In this document: in pieces, positions 1,745 to 20,354 of the stretch | Numbering within the stretch: position 1 is the stretch's first letter | Layout of the letters: each line of letters starts with the position of its first letter | IMG/VR virus record: IMGVR_UViG_3300020045_006153 | Coordinates: 115,550 to 179,549 of that record | Source of the DNA: a virus | Lineage: Duplodnaviria > Heunggongvirae > Uroviricota > Caudoviricetes | Length of the DNA: 64,000 bases | Direction: 5' to 3' (one strand) | Translations under genes and position numbers: made by a program | Notes under the pieces: generated by a model | The model's input: only the letters and a program-made list of their open reading frames with translations | The model's database searches: none | Told to the model about the DNA's origin: nothing

Positions 1745-2317
1745 ATGCAACATTTTTATCAAGACATTTTTGGTTACTTTAGTTACGAATACATTTATCA
1801 CTACAAAGTGGCAGAAGCAGTAGACGGTGCAATATTTGTAGAGATCGGATCATTCAAAGGTAAGAGTTCATCCTTTATGGCAGTTGAGATTGCTAATAGT
1901 CAAAAGAAGATCGGATTTATTTGTATCGATCCCATGGAACTAATGAGCCACTATGTTAAAGATGCTTCTGCAAATCCGGCTTGGGAAGGATACAATGTAG
2001 AAAACTTTCGTAAAACAATGGAACCTGTAAAAGACTACTATATATTACTGCAAATGACAAGCGAAGCAGCCTCAACGCAGTTTAAGAATAATAGTATTGA
2101 CTTTATTATGATCGATGGAGACCACGAATATGAGGCAGTGAAGGCAGACATTCTTAACTTTTATCCAAAGATGAAAGACGGTGGTGAAATGTGGGGAGAT
2201 GATGCATGGGCTCCAACTATTTGGCAAGCAGCACAAGACGCAGCAAACGAACTAGGATTAGTAGCAGAACTCGTAAACAACAGTCATTTTAAAATTGTTG
2301 CCAAAAAACAACAATAA
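1745..2317 (+). CDS. Class I SAM-dependent methyltransferase (Methyltransf_24-like)
   Basis: VEIGSFKGKS, IDFIMIDGDHEYEAV motifs. Confidence 0.85.
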   Translation: MQHFYQDIFGYFSYEYIYHYKVAEAVDGAIFVEIGSFKGKSSSFMAVEIANSQKKIGFICIDPMELMSHYVKDASANPAWEGYNVENFRKTMEPVKDYYILLQMTSEAASTQFKNNSIDFIMIDGDHEYEAVKADILNFYPKMKDGGEMWGDDAWAPTIWQAAQDAANELGLVAELVNNSHFKIVAKKQQ

Positions 2318-2320
2318 TTG

Positions 2321-2534
2321 TTGACAAAGTATAAATAACTCTATACAATAAAGACTTGCTAGAGATTACTGCATACGCAAATTGATAAAACAAAATGCAA
2401 ACAGGGGTTGACAGCAGGGATAAATAAACGTATAATTTAAACTTGTTAGCAAATACTGTACGCTAAAAAGAATTTGTAAAAAGATTCAAAATAAGCAAAT
2501 AGTACTTGACAACAGAGATAAATAAACGTATAAT
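2321..2534 (+). promoter_or_regulatory. Three tandem sigma70 promoters each with embedded ATAAATA late-type box
   Basis: TTGACA-17-TACAAT (2321/2344), TTGACA-17-TATAAT (2408/2431; 2506/2529); ATAAATAA in each spacer. Confidence 0.85.
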
Positions 2535-2587
2535 TAAGACATACGCTGCATAGGGCAGTATATGTTAGTAGAAATTAAAAGAAACAA

Positions 2588-2743
2588 ATGACTAAAGTGA
2601 TATCATTATCGTTGAATTGTAAAGCAGAACTAGGCGGGTTTATGCCCTCTTATTGGTCTGCGAATACACAACAACATAATAGTGATCGCACACCGGTAGA
2701 GATTAGAATTAGGGTTCGAGAAGAAGGAGTAGGTCTAGGCTAA
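2588..2743 (+). CDS. Candidate 51-aa leader peptide (MTKVISLSLNCKAELGGFMPSYWSANTQQHNSDRTPVEIRIRVREEGVGLG)
   Basis: ATG..TAA between promoter cluster and terminator; weak SD; not in ORF track. Confidence 0.55.
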   Translation: MTKVISLSLNCKAELGGFMPSYWSANTQQHNSDRTPVEIRIRVREEGVGLG

Positions 2744-2772
2744 CAAGCCCAGTAACTACAACAAACTTTAAG

Positions 2773-2810
2773 AACCCTAGGATTAAAAACCCTGGGGTTT
2801 TTTGTTTTTA
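2773..2810 (+). terminator. Intrinsic terminator / attenuator hairpin
   Basis: AACCCTAGG-ATTAAAAAC-CCTGGGGTT followed by TTTTGTTTTT. Confidence 0.85.
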
Positions 2811-2973
2811 ACGCTGTGAAGCGTAAAGTGTTAGTGGCAGAGACTGTTAAGGCAGTTGTTGACGCAAACGTGTAATAAAGTACAGTAACGTAGACTGGAC
2901 CGGGCACGATAAACATCCGGTGAAAGGGCGGTGACGGGGATGGCTTATCTTCTTGTAGATAAAAAAATCCGTC

Positions 2974-3053
2974 ATATTAAAGCACACTGCATCGTTGTAA
3001 GTGACTCGGCGAAAGCTGATATCGACCGCGGGATGTTAGGTGTGCTTTAATAT
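2974..3053 (+). ncRNA. Long-stem cassette RNA 1
   Basis: 14-bp perfect IR ATATTAAAGCACAC / GTGTGCTTTAATAT enclosing structured interior. Confidence 0.5.
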
Positions 3054-3085
3054 ACACATTCGAAAGAGTGTGTTAAATTATATTT

Positions 3086-3169
3086 GGTTCTGTGGGTGAG
3101 TGGCTGAAACCGTCGGACTGTAAATCCGATCTTAATAGCGCGTTGGTTCGAATCCAACCGGAACCACCA
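3086..3169 (+). tRNA. tRNA-Tyr(GTA)
   Basis: Cloverleaf, loop CTGTAAA, TTCGAAT T-loop, ACCA. Confidence 0.92.
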
Positions 3170-3174
3170 AATAT

Positions 3175-3249
3175 ACTGCTGTCGTCTAGTGGCTAGGACA
3201 TCTGGTTTTCATCCAGAGAAAGACGGATCGAAACCGTTCAGCAGTACCA
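3175..3249 (+). tRNA. tRNA-Glu(TTC)
   Basis: Cloverleaf, loop TTTTCAT, T-loop ATCGAAA, ACCA. Confidence 0.88.
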
Positions 3250-3254
3250 GTTTT

Positions 3255-3314
3255 AGGATACATACAGCAAACTTAAAATTTTAATATGGTTTTAAAAGAC
3301 AAAAATGTATCCTG
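3255..3314 (+). ncRNA. CAGCAA-motif RNA copy 1
   Basis: AGGATAC-ATA-CAGCAA ... GTATCCTG with internal TTTTAA/TTAAAA hairpin. Confidence 0.7.
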
Positions 3315-3323
3315 TTATATTAT

Positions 3324-3409
3324 GGAGTATTATACCGTTAAGGAGACGGTCCGGCCTGTAAAGTCGGCGCATTATTGCTCTGTTGGATCGTTACCAACAT
3401 ACTCCACCA
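3324..3409 (+). tRNA. tRNA-Tyr(GTA)
   Basis: GGAGTAT/ATACTCC acceptor, loop CTGTAAA, long variable arm, ACCA. Confidence 0.88.
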
Positions 3410-3416
3410 AGTTTAT

Positions 3417-3494
3417 CTCTCATTAATGTCAATCTGGTAGACGGCCTGATCTGGAGTCAGGAGGCTGTACGTTCGAATCGTACATGGGAGACCA
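3417..3494 (+). tRNA. tRNA-Pro(TGG), C33 variant
   Basis: CCTGA-TCTGGAG-TCAGG anticodon arm, T-loop TTCGAAT, ACCA. Confidence 0.75.
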
Positions 3495-3503
3495 AGTTTT
3501 TAT

Positions 3504-3577
3504 GCATCGGTAGTTTAATGGCAGAACCGCGGTGTTACATACCGCTGATGGGAGTTCAATTCTCCAACGATGTACCA
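3504..3577 (+). tRNA. tRNA-Val(TAC)
   Basis: GCGGT-GTTACAT-ACCGC anticodon arm, ACCA. Confidence 0.8.
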
Positions 3578-3582
3578 GTTTT

Positions 3583-3638
3583 AGGATCAGTTCAGCAAAC
3601 TTAAAAATTCACTGTAAATGAAATCAAAGTTGATCCTG
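3583..3638 (+). ncRNA. CAGCAA-motif RNA copy 2 carrying Tyr-type anticodon stem-loop
   Basis: AGGATCA-GTT-CAGCAA ... TTCA-CTGTAAA-TGAA ... TGATCCTG. Confidence 0.75.
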
Positions 3639-3649
3639 TTATATTTTAA

Positions 3650-3723
3650 CTCCGTGTGGTGAAATGGTATCACTCTTGGTTTGGGACCAAGGAGCGTAGG
3701 TTCGATTCCTACTACGGAGACCA
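3650..3723 (+). tRNA. tRNA-Pro(TGG)
   Basis: Cloverleaf, loop TTTGGGA, ACCA. Confidence 0.92.
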
Positions 3724-3728
3724 CATTT

Positions 3729-3792
3729 AGGATGCTTCCAGCAAACTTCTAAAAAATCAAATTGAAACTTTGACACTAAGAAATGCATCCTG
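3729..3792 (+). ncRNA. CAGCAA-motif RNA copy 3 carrying Phe-type anticodon stem-loop
   Basis: AGGATGC-TTC-CAGCAA ... TCAAA-TTGAAAC-TTTGA ... GCATCCTG. Confidence 0.75.
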
Positions 3793-3803
3793 TTAGTTTT
3801 TAT

Positions 3804-3877
3804 TCGGGATTTGTGTAGTGGTAGCACAACAGACTTTGACTCTGTCGGTATAAGTTCGATTCTTATATCCCGTACCA
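3804..3877 (+). tRNA. tRNA-Gln(TTG)
   Basis: ACAGA-CTTTGAC-TCTGT, T-loop, ACCA. Confidence 0.88.
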
Positions 3878-3883
3878 ATATAT

Positions 3884-3958
3884 GCCATGGTAGGACTCTG
3901 GGAGTTTACCACACTGTCGATGTGATTTAGGCGGGTTCAATTCCCGTCCATGGCGCCA
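3884..3958 (+). tRNA. tRNA-Asp(GTC)
   Basis: GCCATGG/CCATGGC acceptor, loop CTGTCGA, GCCA. Confidence 0.82.
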
Positions 3959-4018
3959 AGTTTGAAGACGACAAGGTTACCTGCACCACAATGTCAAGCA
4001 GGACTTCAATTAGTTAAT

Positions 4019-4093
4019 GGGGGCAGCAGAGGGCTGCGGGTTTGCTTTGCAAGCATACTGACTAGAACGGTTCGATACCGTCGGCCTCCACCA
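4019..4093 (+). tRNA. tRNA-Ala(TGC)
   Basis: G3.U70, loop TTTGCAA, ACCA. Confidence 0.8.
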
Positions 4094-4099
4094 AAGTTA

Positions 4100-4157
4100 C
4101 GGGGCAACAAAGAGCAACTCTGTTAGAGTTCGTACAGCAAGTTAAAATGCCCCGCCA
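4100..4157 (+). ncRNA. Acceptor-minihelix RNA with permuted CAGCAA motif
   Basis: GGGGCA/TGCCCC-G-CCA enclosing AACTCTG-TT-AGAGTTC-GTA-CAGCAA. Confidence 0.65.
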
Positions 4158-4161
4158 ATAT

Positions 4162-4237
4162 GTCCCTGTCGTCTACCTGGTTAGGACGTCAGCCTTTCAA
4201 GTTGAAAAATCGGGTTCGAGACCCGATGGGGACGCCA
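4162..4237 (+). tRNA. tRNA-Glu(TTC)
   Basis: TCAGC-CTTTCAA-GTTGA, GCCA. Confidence 0.9.
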
Positions 4238-4243
4238 AGTTAT

Positions 4244-4338
4244 GGGGAAGATGCTCTAAGGTAGAGTAATATGCATTCTGCTTAGAATGTTTACTGCAAA
4301 AATCAAACTAATTGGTTCGATTCCAATCTTCTCCACCA
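4244..4338 (+). ncRNA. Anticodon-less tRNA-like RNA (Ala identity) with permuted motif in place of anticodon arm
   Basis: GGGGAAG/CTTCTCC (G3.U70, A73), D-arm, GCATTCTG-CTT-AGAATG-TTTA-CTGCAA, T-arm, CCA. Confidence 0.75.
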
Positions 4339-4343
4339 ATTAT

Positions 4344-4421
4344 GCGGGTATACAGTGCAAAGGGCGCACAGCAGATTTCCAATCTGAAGATCGCGGAGTT
4401 CGATTCTCCATACCCGCTCCA
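4344..4421 (+). tRNA. tRNA-Gly(TCC)
   Basis: GCGGGTA acceptor, loop TTTCCAA, TCCA. Confidence 0.88.
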
Positions 4422-4426
4422 ATTAT

Positions 4427-4490
4427 AGGATGCTTCCAGCAAACTTTATAAATTTCAAAACCATTATCTTTGAAAAGAAAAAGCATCCTG
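4427..4490 (+). ncRNA. CAGCAA-motif RNA copy 4
   Basis: AGGATGC-TTC-CAGCAA ... TTCAAA/TTTGAA hairpin ... GCATCCTG. Confidence 0.7.
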
Positions 4491-4499
4491 ATATTTTAT

Positions 4500-4577
4500 T
4501 CCGCAGAAGCCAAGTAAGGACAAGGCCGTGACTGTTAATCACTGTTTAAACTGGTTCGATTCCAGTGTGCGGAGCCA
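4500..4577 (+). tRNA. tRNA-Asn(GTT)
   Basis: GTGA-CTGTTAA-TCAC, GCCA. Confidence 0.85.
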
Positions 4578-4586
4578 AGTTAGTTA

Positions 4587-4662
4587 GGTCTCAAAGTGTT
4601 CATGGACGCACACGACACTGTCACTGTCGAAGAGTGGGGATCGTTACCCCCTGGGACCGCCA
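4587..4662 (+). tRNA. tRNA-Asp(GTC)
   Basis: CGACA-CTGTCAC-TGTCG, GCCA. Confidence 0.88.
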
Positions 4663-4669
4663 ATTTTAT

Positions 4670-4744
4670 GTCCCTTTAGTATAATGGATAATACACAACG
4701 CTACGAACGTTGGGATCCAGGTTCGATTCCTGGGAGGGGCTCCA
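4670..4744 (+). tRNA. tRNA-Arg(ACG)
   Basis: CAACG-CTACGAA-CGTTG, TCCA. Confidence 0.92.
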
Positions 4745-4748
4745 ACTT

Positions 4749-4822
4749 GCCTTTTTAGTTTAATGGTAGAGCACCGGTTTTGTATTCCGGGAATAGGGGT
4801 TCGATTCCTCTAAAAGGCACCA
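4749..4822 (+). tRNA. tRNA-Thr(TGT)
   Basis: GCCTTTT/AAAAGGC, loop TTTGTAT, ACCA. Confidence 0.88.
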
Positions 4823-4845
4823 TGTGTTAGTGAGACATCTTAGGT

Positions 4846-4918
4846 GTGGCCTTAGTGTAAAGGTTAAGCACCTCACTCTGTGAAAGTGATAGAATGGGAT
4901 CAATACCCATAGGTCACC
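4846..4918 (+). tRNA. tRNA-His(GTG), no encoded CCA, embedded in flanking stem
   Basis: TCACT-CTGTGAA-AGTGA; C73; flanked by ACATCTTAG/CTAAGATGT. Confidence 0.82.
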
Positions 4919-4934
4919 CCTAAGATGTTTATAT

Positions 4935-5008
4935 TCCCGGTTAATTAAATGGTATAATACTCGCCTGATAAGCGGAATTTACAAGTTCGATTCTTGTACT
5001 GGGAACCA
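4935..5008 (+). tRNA. tRNA-Ile(GAT)
   Basis: Loop CTGATAA, T-loop, ACCA. Confidence 0.85.
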
Positions 5009-5018
5009 TAAGTTTTAT

Positions 5019-5273
5019 TTCGTTATAGTGTAGAGGAAGGTAGAGTAGTATTGAGTAGGTGAGATAAGTCAGTTAGTAATTCAAAGTAGATAACAATCGC
5101 GTAGGCTTTAAAACCAAACACTGTGAGTCCGGGAAGTGCGGAACAGGTTGAAATGAATGAAGGGTGAGATAAGGCGCTGAGGGGATACGAGGGTAACTTT
5201 GGGAAACACACGGGGACCCAGCATACGCGATTTTAGCCCCGCATCGCAAGTTCGAGTCTTGCTGACGAAGCCA
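5019..5273 (+). ncRNA. 255-nt tRNA-like RNA (acceptor stem + T-arm + CCA, ~200-nt insert)
   Basis: TTCGTTA/TGACGAA-G-CCA; GCAAG-TTCGAGT-CTTGC; internal ATCGCGTA/TACGCGAT helix. Confidence 0.65.
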
Positions 5274-5279
5274 GTTTAT

Positions 5280-5373
5280 ATGTCTGTAGTTCAATGAGGT
5301 GCGCAAGTAATTCCTCGAAGTCAGAACGCCCTTGATCAGGGAGATGGAGGTTAGAGACCTTCTGGGCATGCCA
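5280..5373 (+). tRNA. Atypical tRNA with hairpin inserted in D-loop, 5-nt anticodon loop (TGATC)
   Basis: ATGTCTG/TGGGCAT-G-CCA; GTTC..GAAC D-stem enclosing GAGG..CCTC hairpin. Confidence 0.55.
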
Positions 5374-5378
5374 GTTTT

Positions 5379-5497
5379 AGGATGTTTACCGCAAACTTTA
5401 TCTTTATTCCAAACTAGTGGTCCGGTTCGATTCCGGCGTCCGATTCGGATGTGGTGTAATGGTAGCACACAAGTCCACAAGAGAAAACAGCATCCTG
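5379..5497 (+). ncRNA. Circularly permuted tRNA-Gly(TCC) bracketed by CAGCAA-type motif
   Basis: 3' half (nt33-73) 5407-5444 fused to 5' half (nt1-32) 5445-5475 inside AGGATG..CCGCAA / CATCCTG. Confidence 0.75.
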
Positions 5498-5506
5498 TTA
5501 TTTTAT

Positions 5507-5583
5507 GCCTTCGTACGCTAATTGGTAGTGCGGATAGTTTTAGAAACTGTTGGTTGGGGGTTCGAATCCGCCCGAAGGTACCA
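5507..5583 (+). tRNA. tRNA-Leu(TAG), short variable arm
   Basis: ATAGT-TTTAGAA-ACTGT, 5-nt variable loop, ACCA. Confidence 0.8.
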
Positions 5584-5590
5584 TAGTTAT

Positions 5591-5679
5591 TGGGGAGTGG
5601 TGAAATTGGTTAGCCACACTGGTCTTTGAAATCAGCGCCTGTAATGGGCATGTAGGTTCGACTCCTACCTCCTCAGCCA
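5591..5679 (+). tRNA. tRNA-Gln(TTG) with long variable arm
   Basis: U1-A72,G73; CTGGT-CTTTGAA-ATCAG; extra GCCT/GGGC arm. Confidence 0.8.
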
Positions 5680-5685
5680 AGTTAT

Positions 5686-5760
5686 ATCTTGTTAGTTTAA
5701 TGATTAGAACGCTAGCATTTTCGGCTAGTAATGCAGATTCGATCCTTGCACAAGATACCA
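5686..5760 (+). tRNA. Degenerate tRNA (anticodon TTT by position)
   Basis: CTAGC-ATTTTCG-GCTAG; imperfect T-arm; ACCA. Confidence 0.6.
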
Positions 5761-5865
5761 CAGAGTATAAGTAGTCCTAAGCAACCTGGACCCTGCTCAA
5801 ACGAACCAGCGTAACTGGGATGCGATACTTTCGCTTGAGAGGTTAGCCCTCACAGTAAGAATAAC

Positions 5866-5943
5866 GCCAGAGTAGCTCCAATTGCGTAGAGCAGCAGCCT
5901 GAAAAGTTGTGTGTTGTCGGTTCGAATCCGACCTTTGGTACCA
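5866..5943 (+). tRNA. tRNA-Phe(GAA)
   Basis: Loop CTGAAAA, ACCA. Confidence 0.9.
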
Positions 5944-5949
5944 TTTTAT

Positions 5950-6035
5950 GGATAGTTGTGCGCTGGCCGCAAGTTGGTTTGCTAAACCGATCCACTGCTA
6001 ACGCGGTGACAGTTCGATTCTGTATCTATCCTCCA
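5950..6035 (+). tRNA. tRNA-Ser(GCT)
   Basis: Loop TTGCTAA, long variable arm. Confidence 0.85.
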
Positions 6036-6042
6036 AGTTTAT

Positions 6043-6118
6043 GCACCTTTAGCTGATGTGGTCATAGTGGCGGTCTGAAGATCCGTTGAAGTTGGTTCGA
6101 TTCCAACAGGGTGCACCA
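6043..6118 (+). tRNA. tRNA-Phe(GAA)
   Basis: Loop CTGAAGA, ACCA. Confidence 0.85.
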
Positions 6119-6128
6119 AGTTAGTATT

Positions 6129-6202
6129 GCTCTTATCGTTAAATGGTAGGACACCTCTTTGGTAAGGAGGGAATAGAAGTTCGATTCTTCTTGAGAGCAC
6201 CA
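6129..6202 (+). tRNA. tRNA-Thr(GGT)
   Basis: CCTCT-TTGGTAA-GGAGG, ACCA. Confidence 0.9.
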
Positions 6203-6209
6203 AATTTAT

Positions 6210-6298
6210 GGGCTGGCGCCGTGGGACACGGCCGAAGTTGCAGTGATGTGACATGCGGAAAAGCGCTGAGAAGGTTCAACTCCTTTCCTAGTCCACCA
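6210..6298 (+). ncRNA. Aberrant tRNA-like RNA with Ala identity
   Basis: GGGCTGG/CTAGTCC (G3.U70) A73 CCA, T-loop TTCAACT, no canonical anticodon arm. Confidence 0.55.
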
Positions 6299-6300
6299 GA

Positions 6301-6476
6301 TTTTTGAGATAGACGAGGGAGTTATAGCATTGCCTAACAATGCTGAGTCGTAAGTAGCGGTGAATGTAGCAGGTCTAGTGCTACATTGACGGGTTTAACG
6401 TGAAAGAAACAAGATCTCCTCCCATCGAGACAACCCGTTGAGTCCCTTCAATAAGGATAGGCGGCCTCTCAAAAAA
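6301..6476 (+). ncRNA. Multi-helix structured RNA of unknown class
   Basis: TTTTTGAGA/TCTCAAAAA closing stem, hairpins AGCATTG/CAATGCT, AATGTAGCA/TGCTACATT, ACGGGTT/AACCCGT. Confidence 0.5.
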
Positions 6477-6675
6477 CTATTTGGGGTGAATGGTTAGAAG
6501 CGGGTTCGATTCCCGTATAGTCCACCATAAAGTATATCGCCTAGTCGACGAGGGTCAGGTCGTGCTTACTATAAGAAAGTAAGTTTTCCTGGCAGGTATA
6601 CTTCATAATGGGCTAGGTTGGATCCGCCTCCTAGGGGCATTGCAGGGTTCGATTCCCGCGCACTCCACCAAATAT

Positions 6676-6762
6676 GGATTATAGATGTGCTGGGCACTAA
6701 GCGGCTTCGAATACCGTTCCACTTAGAAATAGGTGATAGTTCGATTCTATTATAATCCGCCA
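6676..6762 (+). tRNA. tRNA-Ser(CGA)
   Basis: GGATTAT acceptor, loop TTCGAAT, long variable arm, GCCA. Confidence 0.75.
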
Positions 6763-6777
6763 ATAAATAAAGAATAT

Positions 6778-6867
6778 GGAGTGTAGAGTTCATGGTGAGC
6801 AAGCAGCCTTGAAAACTGTTCCACTGGTTAGTAGCCGGTGATGGTTCGATTCCATTACACTCCGCCA
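6778..6867 (+). tRNA. tRNA-Ser(TGA)
   Basis: Loop CTTGAAA, long variable arm, GCCA. Confidence 0.85.
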
Positions 6868-6873
6868 AAATAT

Positions 6874-6960
6874 GGAAGATAGAAGTGCTGGGCACTAAGC
6901 AACTTGGAAAGTTGTTCCACTGTGAAAACGGTGACAGTTCGATTCTGTTATCTTCCTCCA
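6874..6960 (+). tRNA. tRNA-Ser(GGA)
   Basis: GCAAC-TTGGAAA-GTTGT, long variable arm. Confidence 0.85.
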
Positions 6961-6966
6961 AATTAT

Positions 6967-7044
6967 AGTGCGGTGCCCGAGTGGTCCAAGGGAACTGATT
7001 GCAAACCAGTAAAACCGTGAGTTCAAATCTCACCCGCACTTCCA
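6967..7044 (+). tRNA. tRNA-Cys(GCA)
   Basis: Loop TTGCAAA, U73, CCA. Confidence 0.9.
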
Positions 7045-7049
7045 AATAT

Positions 7050-7125
7050 ACGTCGTTCTTCTAACTGGCAAGATAACGGACTCCAAATTCGTTTAATATA
7101 GGTTCGAATCCTATGCGGCGTGCCA
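7050..7125 (+). tRNA. tRNA-Trp(CCA)
   Basis: Loop CTCCAAA, GCCA. Confidence 0.88.
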
Positions 7126-7135
7126 ACATAAATAC

Positions 7136-7720
7136 GTGATGAGAATAACTGAACTTTTTGAATCACGTAGTGCTGATTTGTATCACGGTACAAATCTGTT
7201 AAAATTAAATAACATATTGCAAAGAAATATGTTTAAAGCAAGTGCATCTGTCCGCAGCGATATTGTACCGCATACGTTTAAAGGACATAGTAGAACTGTT
7301 TCTTTTTCTAGAGATCCGAATATGTCAGTTAACTTTGCTCGTTCTAAAGCAGGCGGGGAAGAAGGCATTAACGGTATACCAGTTGTCATTGTTGTGGATC
7401 AAAATAAATTATATCAAACTGTAGGTAGAAGAATGCAGGCATATAATGATCTTGCATTAACACATAATGGAACAGAAAGATCAAATGGCGGTAGTGAGTC
7501 TGAGGAAGTTGTTTTTGGAGACATAAATGATGCTAATGCTTTTATTAAAAAGATTATCATTCATATGCCCAAAAATGCAGGTAAAGACTTAACAAGTGCA
7601 TTGGCTAAATGCACTAATATCTTAGGTGATCCGCGTACTGTGATAGTAGATTTTCTAAATAAACCACTATCGGGTAAAGAATTCATCAATATAGCAAATA
7701 ATAATGTATCTCTAGTGTAA
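7136..7720 (+). CDS. ADP-ribosyltransferase-fold protein, putative virion-packaged
   Basis: LYHGT, VSFSRD, ESEEVV motifs; N-term MRITELFES; CATAAATA upstream. Confidence 0.6.
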   Translation: MMRITELFESRSADLYHGTNLLKLNNILQRNMFKASASVRSDIVPHTFKGHSRTVSFSRDPNMSVNFARSKAGGEEGINGIPVVIVVDQNKLYQTVGRRMQAYNDLALTHNGTERSNGGSESEEVVFGDINDANAFIKKIIIHMPKNAGKDLTSALAKCTNILGDPRTVIVDFLNKPLSGKEFINIANNNVSLV

Positions 7721-7779
7721 TGGCAGCATTCCGGTCTCCAAAACCGTCAGTCAAGGTTCGAGTCCTTGGAGGTACGCCA
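7706..7779 (+). tRNA. tRNA-Trp(CCA), overlapping upstream ORF end
   Basis: Loop CTCCAAA, T-loop TTCGAGT, GCCA. Confidence 0.9.
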
Positions 7780-9057: not shown

Positions 9058-9226
9058 TTTTAAATTACGTGGAAAATTAAGAATGATGTGTCAATGTGGT
9101 TGTTGTGAAGTTTATAACCCTACATGGACAGAACGGTTAAAAGAAGCAAAGAAAGAAGTTGACAACTACTGTAACACGTTGTATAATAAACAAGAAGGAA
9201 AAGGCAATGAAGGCGAATTATCGTAA
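9032..9226 (+). CDS. Hypothetical protein (CxCGCC)
   Basis: ORF track, overlaps previous stop. Confidence 0.5.
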   Translation: MKSMKSAANFKLRGKLRMMCQCGCCEVYNPTWTERLKEAKKEVDNYCNTLYNKQEGKGNEGELS

Positions 9227-9350
9227 GTTAAATGATCATTCACACAGTTCGAGCACTTACCACAAGAAAGATGGCACACCAGTTCGTGCTATTTTAAAAG
9301 AAGAACTTAAGAAAGAAGTAAAGGCATTATATGAAGCGAAAATCCGCTAA
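9207..9350 (+). CDS. Small basic hypothetical protein
   Basis: In-frame ATG after sigma70 promoter at 9160-9190. Confidence 0.5.
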   Translation: MKANYRKLNDHSHSSSTYHKKDGTPVRAILKEELKKEVKALYEAKIR

Positions 9351-9422: not shown

Positions 9423-9496
9423 CCACTGCAAACATTAAGGTGATGTACTAGGCTCTTACCCTAGGAAACACGGTTCAATACCGTGGCAGTGGACCA
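9423..9496 (+). tRNA. tRNA-Lys(CTT)
   Basis: CTAGG-CTCTTAC-CCTAG, ACCA. Confidence 0.88.
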
Positions 9497-12886: not shown

Positions 12887-12976
12887 AAACCCTGTTTACT
12901 ATTGACAGGGTTTCTTATTTGTGCTACAATATATACATACAGCAAGCAATTACTGTATACACGCTCTTTAAAAATT
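12887..12976 (+). promoter_or_regulatory. Terminator hairpin overlapping sigma70 promoter, followed by boxA
   Basis: AAACCCTGT/ACAGGGTTT; TTGACA(12902)-17-TACAAT; CGCTCTTTAAAAATT at 12962. Confidence 0.75.
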
Positions 12977-15837: not shown

Positions 15838-16009
15838 TTGACAAAGTGTTAAATAGACAGTATAATTAATACATACACTAAGCAGTTAGTGTATAAAATA
15901 TATGTGTTGAGCAATTGCCCACTGTTTTGTGGGATGAAGGTAATAAGAAAACTATTGGATACGTTCATTAGTAGAAATATCTTTAACACATATCGCTCAT
16001 TAAAAATTT
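15838..16009 (+). promoter_or_regulatory. sigma70 promoter with downstream boxA-like site
   Basis: TTGACA(15838)-17-TATAAT; CGCTCATTAAAAATTT at 15994. Confidence 0.65.
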
Positions 16010-19870: not shown

Positions 19871-19907
19871 TAATGCATAGATTAACAAATAATGTAGAAA
19901 GTTTAAT

Positions 19908-20354
19908 ATGAAAAAAGGCGAGATGCTTGCAACAATGCTAGTCATTGCAACGAATGCACATTCTGGTCAATTTGATAAAGGTGGTAACCCCTACATTTTG
20001 CATCCGCTGAAGGTCATGCATTACACTAAGAGTGCAGATGAAGAAATTCAAGTCATGTCTCTAGGACATGATGTAATTGAAGATACCAGTGTAACATATA
20101 CTGACTTGCGTAATGCAGGTGTTAGCGAACGTGTAATTGCAGGAATTCGTTCGCTAACTAAGCAGCCAGGTCAAACATACGAAGAATACAAGGTTAGTGT
20201 TTTTGCTAATCGCGATGCTATGATTGTGAAGATGGCAGACTTGCGCCACAACAGCGATATTCGCCGCCTGAAAGGTGTAACTGAAAAAGACATTGCCCGT
20301 GTTGCAAAATATATGCAATTTTATTCTGAAATTCAAACAGCATTGGCTAATTAA
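19908..20354 (+). CDS. HD-domain protein, RelA/SpoT (p)ppGpp-hydrolase (Mesh1/SAH)-like
   Basis: AHSGQ.DKGGNPYILHP, HDVIEDT, VKMADLRHN motifs. Confidence 0.8.
   Translation: MKKGEMLATMLVIATNAHSGQFDKGGNPYILHPLKVMHYTKSADEEIQVMSLGHDVIEDTSVTYTDLRNAGVSERVIAGIRSLTKQPGQTYEEYKVSVFANRDAMIVKMADLRHNSDIRRLKGVTEKDIARVAKYMQFYSEIQTALAN

Follow-up and report, generated by a model that had tools for sequence, protein, structure and literature searches.

We propose that the tRNA genes of a large phage are controlled by a leader peptide. The DNA in question is a 64,000-nucleotide (nt) stretch, hereafter the window, from a virus of the Caudoviricetes (positions 115,550 to 179,549 of IMG/VR record IMGVR_UViG_3300020045_006153). 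At 2588-2810 on its plus strand, the window carries a short open reading frame (ORF) followed by an RNA switch and then by a tRNA array. Comparison with relatives gives good support for a conserved leader whose terminator/antiterminator switch precedes the array, and the phage probably transcribes its tRNA genes more when ribosomes decode slowly. The mechanism that we favor, with moderate confidence, is a trp-type ribosome-mediated attenuator that heads the array and would respond to slow decoding of any codon. The 353-kb viral record that holds the window is 99% complete according to CheckV, and the window has 45 tRNA genes that cover all 20 amino acids. The reason why phages carry such large tRNA sets is debated, and the control of these genes is poorly understood.

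All of the features that we describe lie on the plus strand. Three tandem sigma-70 promoters drive the leader (2321-2349, 2408-2436, and 2506-2534, which match the consensus at 11, 12, and 12 of 12 positions), and the leader ORF has 51 codons (2588-2743) and encodes the motifs GGFMPSYWS and (N/S)DRTP. Codons 41-43 contain region 2 (2709-2717), the 5′ strand of the antiterminator, which can form 9 base pairs (bp) with 2772-2780. In the inner part of the antiterminator (2720-2769), 2720-2723 pairs with 2766-2769 as a helix, and the stop codon (2741-2743) lies within an apical hairpin (2729-2759). Region 3 (2772-2781) is common to both helices, as it pairs with either region 2 or region 4. The rest of the terminator (2782-2809) is made up of the loop (2782-2790), the 3′ arm or region 4 (2791-2800), and the T-run (2798-2809). 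As folded by RNAfold, the terminator has a stem of 10-12 bp in which 2770-2781 faces 2791-2802 across a 9-nt loop, a T-run to 2809, and a free energy of −15.7 kcal/mol; our consensus scanner missed it because its loop limit is 8 nt. Thus, every part of the layout that a preliminary description had read from this one sequence (promoters, a 51-codon ORF, a terminator, and an antiterminator that pairs 2709-2717 with 2772-2780) is present where it was placed.

Searches of GenBank phages by BLAST, with the region and with the leader peptide, gave no meaningful match, and the methyltransferase-like gene that adjoins the leader has only distant relatives there. The relatives of the leader come from IMG/VR and from metagenome contigs. 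A search with the leader peptide gave 9 loci and a pattern scan gave 1 further lineage, while a metagenome scan gave 49 loci and look-ups of seven variant peptides gave additional DNA. (Two exact-pattern matches in viral contigs, L029 and L037, lay inside an unrelated gene and were discarded as chance matches.) After the removal of duplicates, the working set comprised 45 distinct loci from uncultured phages, all from freshwater-type samples. At the protein level, 298 of 5.8 billion proteins searched with a profile matched at E ≤ 0.01; all are unnamed, with lengths of 43-53 amino acids (aa) aside from start-site extensions. The leader peptide had no match below E = 0.1 in Pfam or PHROGs, and we found no paper on this family in the literature that we searched. 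In Rfam, the only match to 2200-3200 at E ≤ 1 was tRNA; T-box and other leader or riboswitch families were unmatched.

The antiterminator and the terminator are both maintained in these relatives. In a structure-blind MAFFT alignment of the 3′ halves of 43 distinct loci (alignment A3), the 7-bp core of the 2:3 helix is about 98% paired, and it covaries at 2-4 pairs. For example, one pair is G-C in 31 loci, A-U in 8, and G-U in 1, and another is C-G in 38, U-A in 3, and U-G in 2. If the partner strand is slid by one column, then pairing drops from 90% to about 60%. The terminator helix is 100% paired in the 43 loci and shows compensatory changes at five of its nine pairs. For each of the two helices, none of 500 shuffles reached the observed covariation score. 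As both helices use columns 103-111 of A3, they cannot coexist. In one locus (L101), regions 2, 3, and 4 have been altered jointly (GAGGUCC, GGACCUC, and CCUGAGG), which is a three-way covariation. In the window, the 2:3 pairing is also present when the entire leader is folded at minimum free energy (−80.8 kcal/mol; z = −5.8 relative to shuffles). Between regions 2 and 3, the eight relatives that we inspected have a short helix (GGAG with CUUC or an equivalent) and an apical hairpin of variable sequence that holds the stop codon. The 9-nt terminator loop (AUUAAAAAC type) is conserved in the window (within 2782-2809) and in all of the relatives. Its A-run can pair with the T-run, which would form a small extra hairpin in the antiterminated fold.

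The two states are nearly balanced in free RNA: from nearest-neighbor energies, the antiterminator and terminator states of the 45 loci differ by 0.2 ± 1.3 kcal/mol. When the segment from the end of region 2 to 13 nt past the stop codon is forced to be single-stranded, as it would be under a terminating ribosome, the terminator is favored by 3.9 ± 1.8 kcal/mol. The stop codon is 15 or 18 nt past region 2 in 39 of the 45 loci, and it is always within the antiterminator and never at the terminator. These predicted energies and this spacing support the idea that the end of the ORF is placed so that the position of the ribosome selects the structure. In relatives, a Shine-Dalgarno-like GGAGG lies inside the ORF just past region 2, 8-12 nt before the leader's stop codon (for example in L003, L004, and L008), and it doubles as one strand of the inner antiterminator helix. 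It could be held by the anti-Shine-Dalgarno sequence of the terminating ribosome.

The switch overlaps a conserved reading frame. The preliminary description had named, as its own test in advance, whether the ORF and the antiterminator are conserved in relatives. Besides the antiterminator, the ATG, the frame, and the stop codon are kept in 45 of 45 loci (the stop is TAA, except for TAG in two). There are three length classes of the spacing from the ATG to the Phe codon and six of the spacing from the Trp codon to the Asp codon, and all nine are multiples of three. Upstream of the Pro codon there are at least seven length changes, every one of them a multiple of three. Frame 0 has no stops in the 45 loci, while the other two frames average 2.6 and 4.8. 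Finally, in the DRTP block, which was outside of every search pattern, the variation is almost purely synonymous and at the third position (CGT/CGC; CCA/CCG/CCT). Just 1 of 38 sequences differs (L091, in which Thr-Pro is replaced by Leu-Gln). We infer that the leader ORF is translated.

Constraint is uneven along the ORF. Conservation is strong at FMPSYWS and NDRTP, where replacements are of conservative kinds such as S/T and F/V. Outside of the motifs, the diversity by codon position is only weakly coding-like, as is the ratio of nonsynonymous to synonymous polymorphism (pN/pS, given below). So, the case for coding rests on the in-frame insertions and deletions and on the synonymous change in specific blocks, and, judging from the alignment, much of the leader peptide is free to vary. 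Beyond the Pro codon, the length of the linker that leads to region 2 is in some cases not divisible by three. The GGGUCC core is read in all three frames across the family, which gives peptide variants with GS, GV/RV, or KGP; this implies that the 3′ part is constrained as RNA and not as peptide. AlphaFold2 (with 84 sequences) predicted no secondary structure for the peptide (predicted local distance difference test [pLDDT] of 56 and predicted template modeling score [pTM] of 0.12). The absence of a predicted fold is consistent with a leader peptide but proves little.

What distinguishes the peptide is its composition. In the window, the leader ORF uses 38 distinct codons and all 20 amino acids, which the preliminary description had called only suggestive. 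Complete coverage turns out to be a property of the family. The full set of 20 amino acids is present in 95 of 119 family peptides (mean length 48 aa), and 117 of 119 have at least 19, while only 2-3% of windows of equal length from the phage's own proteins contain all 20. Upstream of region 2 (34-43 codons, or roughly 39), all 20 are present in 35 of 45 loci and at least 19 in 43 of 45; the background for 39-aa windows is 0.7% with all 20 and 5% with at least 19. Shuffling within alignment columns gave a fraction of complete peptides of 0.30 ± 0.035, as compared to 0.80 observed, and none of 2000 shuffles reached the observed value. A tree-aware simulation with site-specific frequencies and rates gave 0.29 complete on average, with a maximum of 0.54, and none of 300 simulations reached 0.80. 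As both null models are exceeded, coverage of all 20 amino acids is not due to inheritance alone. Codon diversity is also elevated, with 36.3 distinct codons per leader versus 32.3 expected.

The rarer residues indicate how coverage is maintained. Cys is present exactly once in 93 of 119 peptides, yet it is spread across eight or more alignment columns (variance/mean of 0.22). Of the peptides without His at its usual column, 29 of 29 have a His elsewhere, as compared to just 10 of the 90 that keep the usual one. Likewise, all 17 peptides that lack Tyr at its usual column have it elsewhere, and Lys reappears elsewhere when its main column is lost. Across the family, then, rare residues relocate instead of vanishing, and we conclude from these comparisons that there is selection for full amino-acid coverage. 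The retention of residues in copy number but not in position is an unusual signature for any protein family, and it could help to find other sensors of this kind. We did not find a run of codons for a single regulatory amino acid in the leaders; instead, coverage of the 20 is under-dispersed and nearly complete. The preliminary description had also pointed to four different Arg codons (CGC, AGA, AGG, and CGA) clustered at the switch, all four Gly codons, and ATA. All of these codons are present as listed, but the Arg cluster is specific to the window and is not a feature of the family.

The genes that the switch presumably regulates are the first 24 tRNA genes of the window and the tRNA-like RNAs that are interspersed with them (3086-7779). 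On the plus strand, no promoter that matches at least 10 of 12 consensus positions is found from 2810 until 8299 (10/12), and the next 12/12 promoter is at 9159. The preliminary description had raised the caveat that a promoter might lie downstream of the terminator (TTGACG at 2859 and TACAGT at 2881). This candidate (2859-2886) does not hold up: it matches at 9 of 12 positions, which is at chance level (a count of 68 for the region versus 60 expected), and relatives of the same layout do not share it; they have a homologous segment of structured RNA without a −10 box. The association of the leader with tRNAs, which had been proposed from the window, is conserved across relatives. A tRNA array lies 250-950 nt downstream in essentially every locus that is long enough (all but one of those with at least 500 nt downstream), and its first gene is tRNA-Tyr in most loci. 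The genes upstream of the leader vary (ClpP, radical SAM, and 2-oxoglutarate [2OG] oxygenases; in the window, transferase-like genes). There is one copy of the leader element per genome.

In about 29 of 39 relatives, an ORF of 52-60 aa with its own Shine-Dalgarno sequence begins 16-21 nt past the T-run (for example, L005 3177-3359). It has the motif ...EEQ.RKLI.DKF.RA... and no match in Pfam or PHROGs. Because the gap leaves no room for a promoter, this ORF can be expressed only by read-through, so the terminator must be leaky or regulated. The ORF is absent from the window and about ten relatives, in which RNA genes follow directly after the switch. Between the terminator and the first tRNA, the window (2890-3080) and several relatives (L007, L041, L080, L086, L079, and L101) have at least 200 nt of structured RNA with covarying stems, such as CCGG...CCGG in the window versus CTGG...CCAG in relatives. 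This RNA seems to belong to the CAGCAA-handle family of small RNAs. The first tRNA has no strong promoter of its own in the window and about a dozen relatives. In others (L002, L053, L060, L069, L070, L072, L079, L093, and L098), a perfect or near-perfect sigma-70 promoter lies about 35-40 nt before the first tRNA, placed to start transcription almost exactly at the 5′ end of the tRNA.

Upstream of the ORF, the relatives have 1-3 sigma-70 consensus promoters at the equivalent place. The leader transcript of the window has a 25-nt hairpin at its 5′ end (2540-2564), and the relatives have a hairpin at the same position with a different sequence. Similar hairpins (of the ACATAC...GTATGT type) lie directly after each consensus early promoter in the array (2540-2564, ~12932-12960, ~15868-15895, and ~19872-19895). 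These shared 5′ hairpins may be a stabilizing or processing signal of early transcripts. Six versions of the leader (L008, L060, L062, L063, L069, and L085) lack the 5′ untranslated region, the 5′ hairpin, and an AAGGAA box. In these, 6-8 nt separate the −10 box from the ATG, and the transcript would thus start at or beside the start codon, as in leaderless mRNAs. The weak Shine-Dalgarno sequence that had been noted as a caveat is real but is ordinary for the window, as 26 of its 42 long ORFs have no Shine-Dalgarno core within 30 nt of the ATG. We rejected an internal start at a second ATG behind a GGAGG box, as many members lack this box and the frame is conserved in its N-terminal part.

The body of the ORF (2597-2691) is also structured, with a long helix around the FMPSYWS codons (2602-2609 with 2679-2686, and flanking pairs). 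In relatives, codons 4-9 pair with the codons just before the Asp codon; the helix is 82.7% paired and 10 of its 14 pairs change on both sides. It is possible that this helix is a pause hairpin.

How might the switch work? We propose that transcription of the leader by the host RNA polymerase begins from the tandem early promoters. If no ribosome is at the end of the ORF, then region 2, the inner helices, and region 3 would zip together first into a long antiterminator hairpin. This would block the terminator, and transcription would continue into the RNA genes (in most relatives, via the 52-60 aa ORF). If instead an undelayed ribosome reaches the stop codon, it would melt the inner helices and abut region 2, so that region 3 would pair with region 4 and transcription would terminate at the T-run. 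Because the antiterminator is transcribed first, the default without translation should be read-through; we infer the direction of the switch from this order. The approximately 39 codons upstream of region 2 hold nearly every amino acid and many synonymous codons, so slow decoding almost anywhere should raise read-through and would couple transcription of the tRNAs to decoding capacity. The preliminary description had already suggested a leader-peptide attenuator with read-through on a stall at any upstream codon. The conserved and covarying ORF, antiterminator, and terminator, the link to tRNAs, and the coverage of all 20 amino acids support it.

Why ribosomes would slow down during infection is a separate question. 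It is possible, although short of probable in our estimation, that the leader is a selected test peptide, with one codon of every kind, that measures the entire supply of aminoacyl-tRNA. A shortage, whether from a mismatch to the codons of the host or from defenses that cleave tRNAs, would then turn on the complete set of tRNAs as well as small RNAs that mimic tRNAs. Both of these natural causes of slow decoding are presumptive, and that host anticodon nucleases are the trigger is speculation on our part.

Several observations weigh against an attenuator of this kind. The pN/pS outside of the motifs is just 0.73, versus 0.87 and 1.38 in the other frames. The conservation of FMPSYWS and NDRTP exceeds what mere sampling of codons would require, and RNA helices or a function of the peptide may account for it. 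The codons GCC and CCC are fixed in the leader, yet the phage uses them rarely and its own tRNAs do not obviously decode them. Initiation of translation appears to be weak or unusual (the AAGGAA box precedes the ATG by 12-14 nt, and six members are leaderless), so tight coupling of the ribosome to the polymerase is an assumption. The candidates that RNAalifold offers for a 1:2 anti-antiterminator (GCCCU with GGGGU, and UUGGU with ACCAG) are invariant and are broken in some variants, and single-sequence folds favor other partners. For amino-acid coverage, the relatedness of the sequences and the poor resolution of the tree make the exact probabilities rough; the effect is robust in its direction. 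In about half of the relatives, a consensus promoter precedes the first tRNA by 35-40 nt, so in those genomes the switch would gate the small ORF and only part of the transcription of the tRNAs. Lastly, contigs of relatives from RNA libraries span the terminator and continue into the downstream ORF; as these libraries may hold DNA and the contigs cannot show transcript ends, we did not use them as evidence.

The invariant Trp, Asp, and Arg residues and the near-invariant Pro recall arrest peptides, and the body of the ORF is a conserved and covarying structured RNA that might be a binding site. The same RNA switch could be set in another way: by arrest of the nascent peptide that depends on a ligand or a factor, in the style of TnaC or SecM, or by a protein or RNA that binds the leader. 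We consider this unlikely. The distance from the Trp to the Pro varies from 9 to 14 residues, and the Pro codon is anywhere from 5 to 15 nt before region 2, so whether a ribosome halted at DRTP masks region 2 would depend on the member, and the outputs would be opposite. We rejected a fixed arrest of the nascent chain at DRTP on these grounds. In contrast, a stall further upstream than DRTP leaves region 2 free in every member, and this is where the full set of amino acids sits. Arrest or binding also leaves the maintained coverage of all 20 amino acids unexplained, and there is no Rfam match at E ≤ 1, T-box included. Alternatively, the strong conservation of FMPSYWS and NDRTP, with conservative replacements, might indicate an ordinary gene for a small early phage protein that is followed by a leaky intrinsic terminator. 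The peptide would act in trans (for instance, on a host factor) and the extra helix would serve in stability or processing. This phage often has small ORFs behind strong early promoters, and many relatives have separate promoters for the tRNAs. This too strikes us as rather improbable: the alternative helix shares at least 6 nt with the terminator stem, covaries, and is energetically balanced against it, and an element for stability would have no need of such competition. Also, the C-terminal part of the peptide is read in three frames, no fold is predicted, single-copy residues that shift position are unlike residues with a structural or binding role, and it is the link to the tRNA array that is constant while the upstream genes vary.

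The other two explanations concern what the element encodes or controls, and we give them still less weight. If the switch mainly controlled the 52-60 aa ORF and the tRNAs were transcribed chiefly from their own promoters, then the tRNA neighborhood would be only positional. This would fit with the presence of the small ORF 16-21 nt past the T-run in about 29 of 39 loci and with the consensus promoters that, in about half of the loci, precede the first tRNA by 35-40 nt. We find it very unlikely, because in the window and about ten relatives the ORF is missing and RNA genes come straight after the switch, because the window has no strong promoter before its 24 tRNAs, and because a sensor for all 20 amino acids is logical for a complete set of tRNAs and not for a small ORF. 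As for a structured non-coding small RNA with an open frame that is incidental, it would account for the strong predicted structure (z = −5.8), for the covariation in several helices, and for the discrete promoter and terminator. Yet chance would hardly keep frame 0 free of stops in 45 loci, restrict the seven or more length changes that precede the Pro codon to multiples of three, and limit variation in DRTP almost exclusively to synonymous changes (1 of 38 sequences differs), and the leaderless members start transcription at the ATG. We put almost no weight on this explanation.

The leader is not repeated within the tRNA region: no similar leader follows the other promoters of the array (9159, 12902, 15838, and 19842). 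The promoter at 9159 is followed by an ORF of 47 aa (9207-9350) shortly before tRNA-Lys at 9423, where we saw no obvious terminator/antiterminator. At the end of the tRNA region, behind a consensus promoter, is an ORF of 148 aa (19908-20354, plus strand) with an HD...ED motif, which presumably resembles those of small (p)ppGpp hydrolases of the SpoT/Mesh1 type.

If our proposal is correct, then phages run a feedback control on their decoding capacity, and the idea that phage tRNAs act as a counter-defense becomes directly testable. At about 220 nt, the element would also offer a compact, naturally occurring reporter of general translation stress. To our knowledge, the tRNA genes of bacteria are regulated at the level of promoters and not by attenuation, and in the literature that we searched, we found no published leader peptide that gates tRNA genes.

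Several known systems share part of this design. T-box riboswitches also report the status of tRNA by a terminator/antiterminator decision. However, a T-box binds one uncharged tRNA directly, has no ORF, and controls genes for aminoacyl-tRNA synthetases or amino-acid metabolism, whereas the phage element is built around a frame that is presumably translated. In the pyrBI attenuator of E. coli, as in the phage, translation of a leader (of about 44 codons) that is coupled to the polymerase decides whether transcription terminates. There, the ribosome covers the terminator and prevents termination. In the phage, the terminator arm begins 28-35 nt downstream of the stop codon, which is too far for the ribosome to mask the terminator, so a pyrBI-type design is excluded and the expected direction of the effect is opposite.

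The closest match in architecture is to leaders of amino-acid operons of the Proteobacteria (trpL, hisL, thrL, leuL, pheL, and the ilv leaders). These also have a short ORF behind a promoter and an intrinsic terminator before the regulated genes, the antiterminator shares a strand with the terminator, and a ribosome that finishes at the stop codon disrupts the antiterminator. The phage leader differs in that it has about one of each amino acid and no run of a single codon, and its switch precedes viral tRNA and tRNA-like genes and not biosynthetic enzymes. Also, a 1:2 anti-antiterminator is not demonstrable in the phage, which is why the untranslated default is probably read-through, and there is no relationship in sequence or in Rfam.

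In function, the nearest described system is the attenuator in the upstream ORF (uORF) of whiB7 (wblC) of mycobacteria and other Actinobacteria (PMC10274678). The whiB7 attenuator is reportedly activated by knock-down of many genes for amino acids, tRNAs, and tRNA synthetases, and the uORF, by its coding sequence, sets which starvations are sensed (PMC10274678). Both systems combine a uORF with a terminator/antiterminator in the 5′ leader, and the phage element would, like that of whiB7, sense translation stress broadly. The whiB7 uORF is enriched in alanine and controls a bacterial transcription factor (PMC10274678), while the phage leader, which has no homology to it, is balanced over the 20 amino acids and would gate RNA genes.

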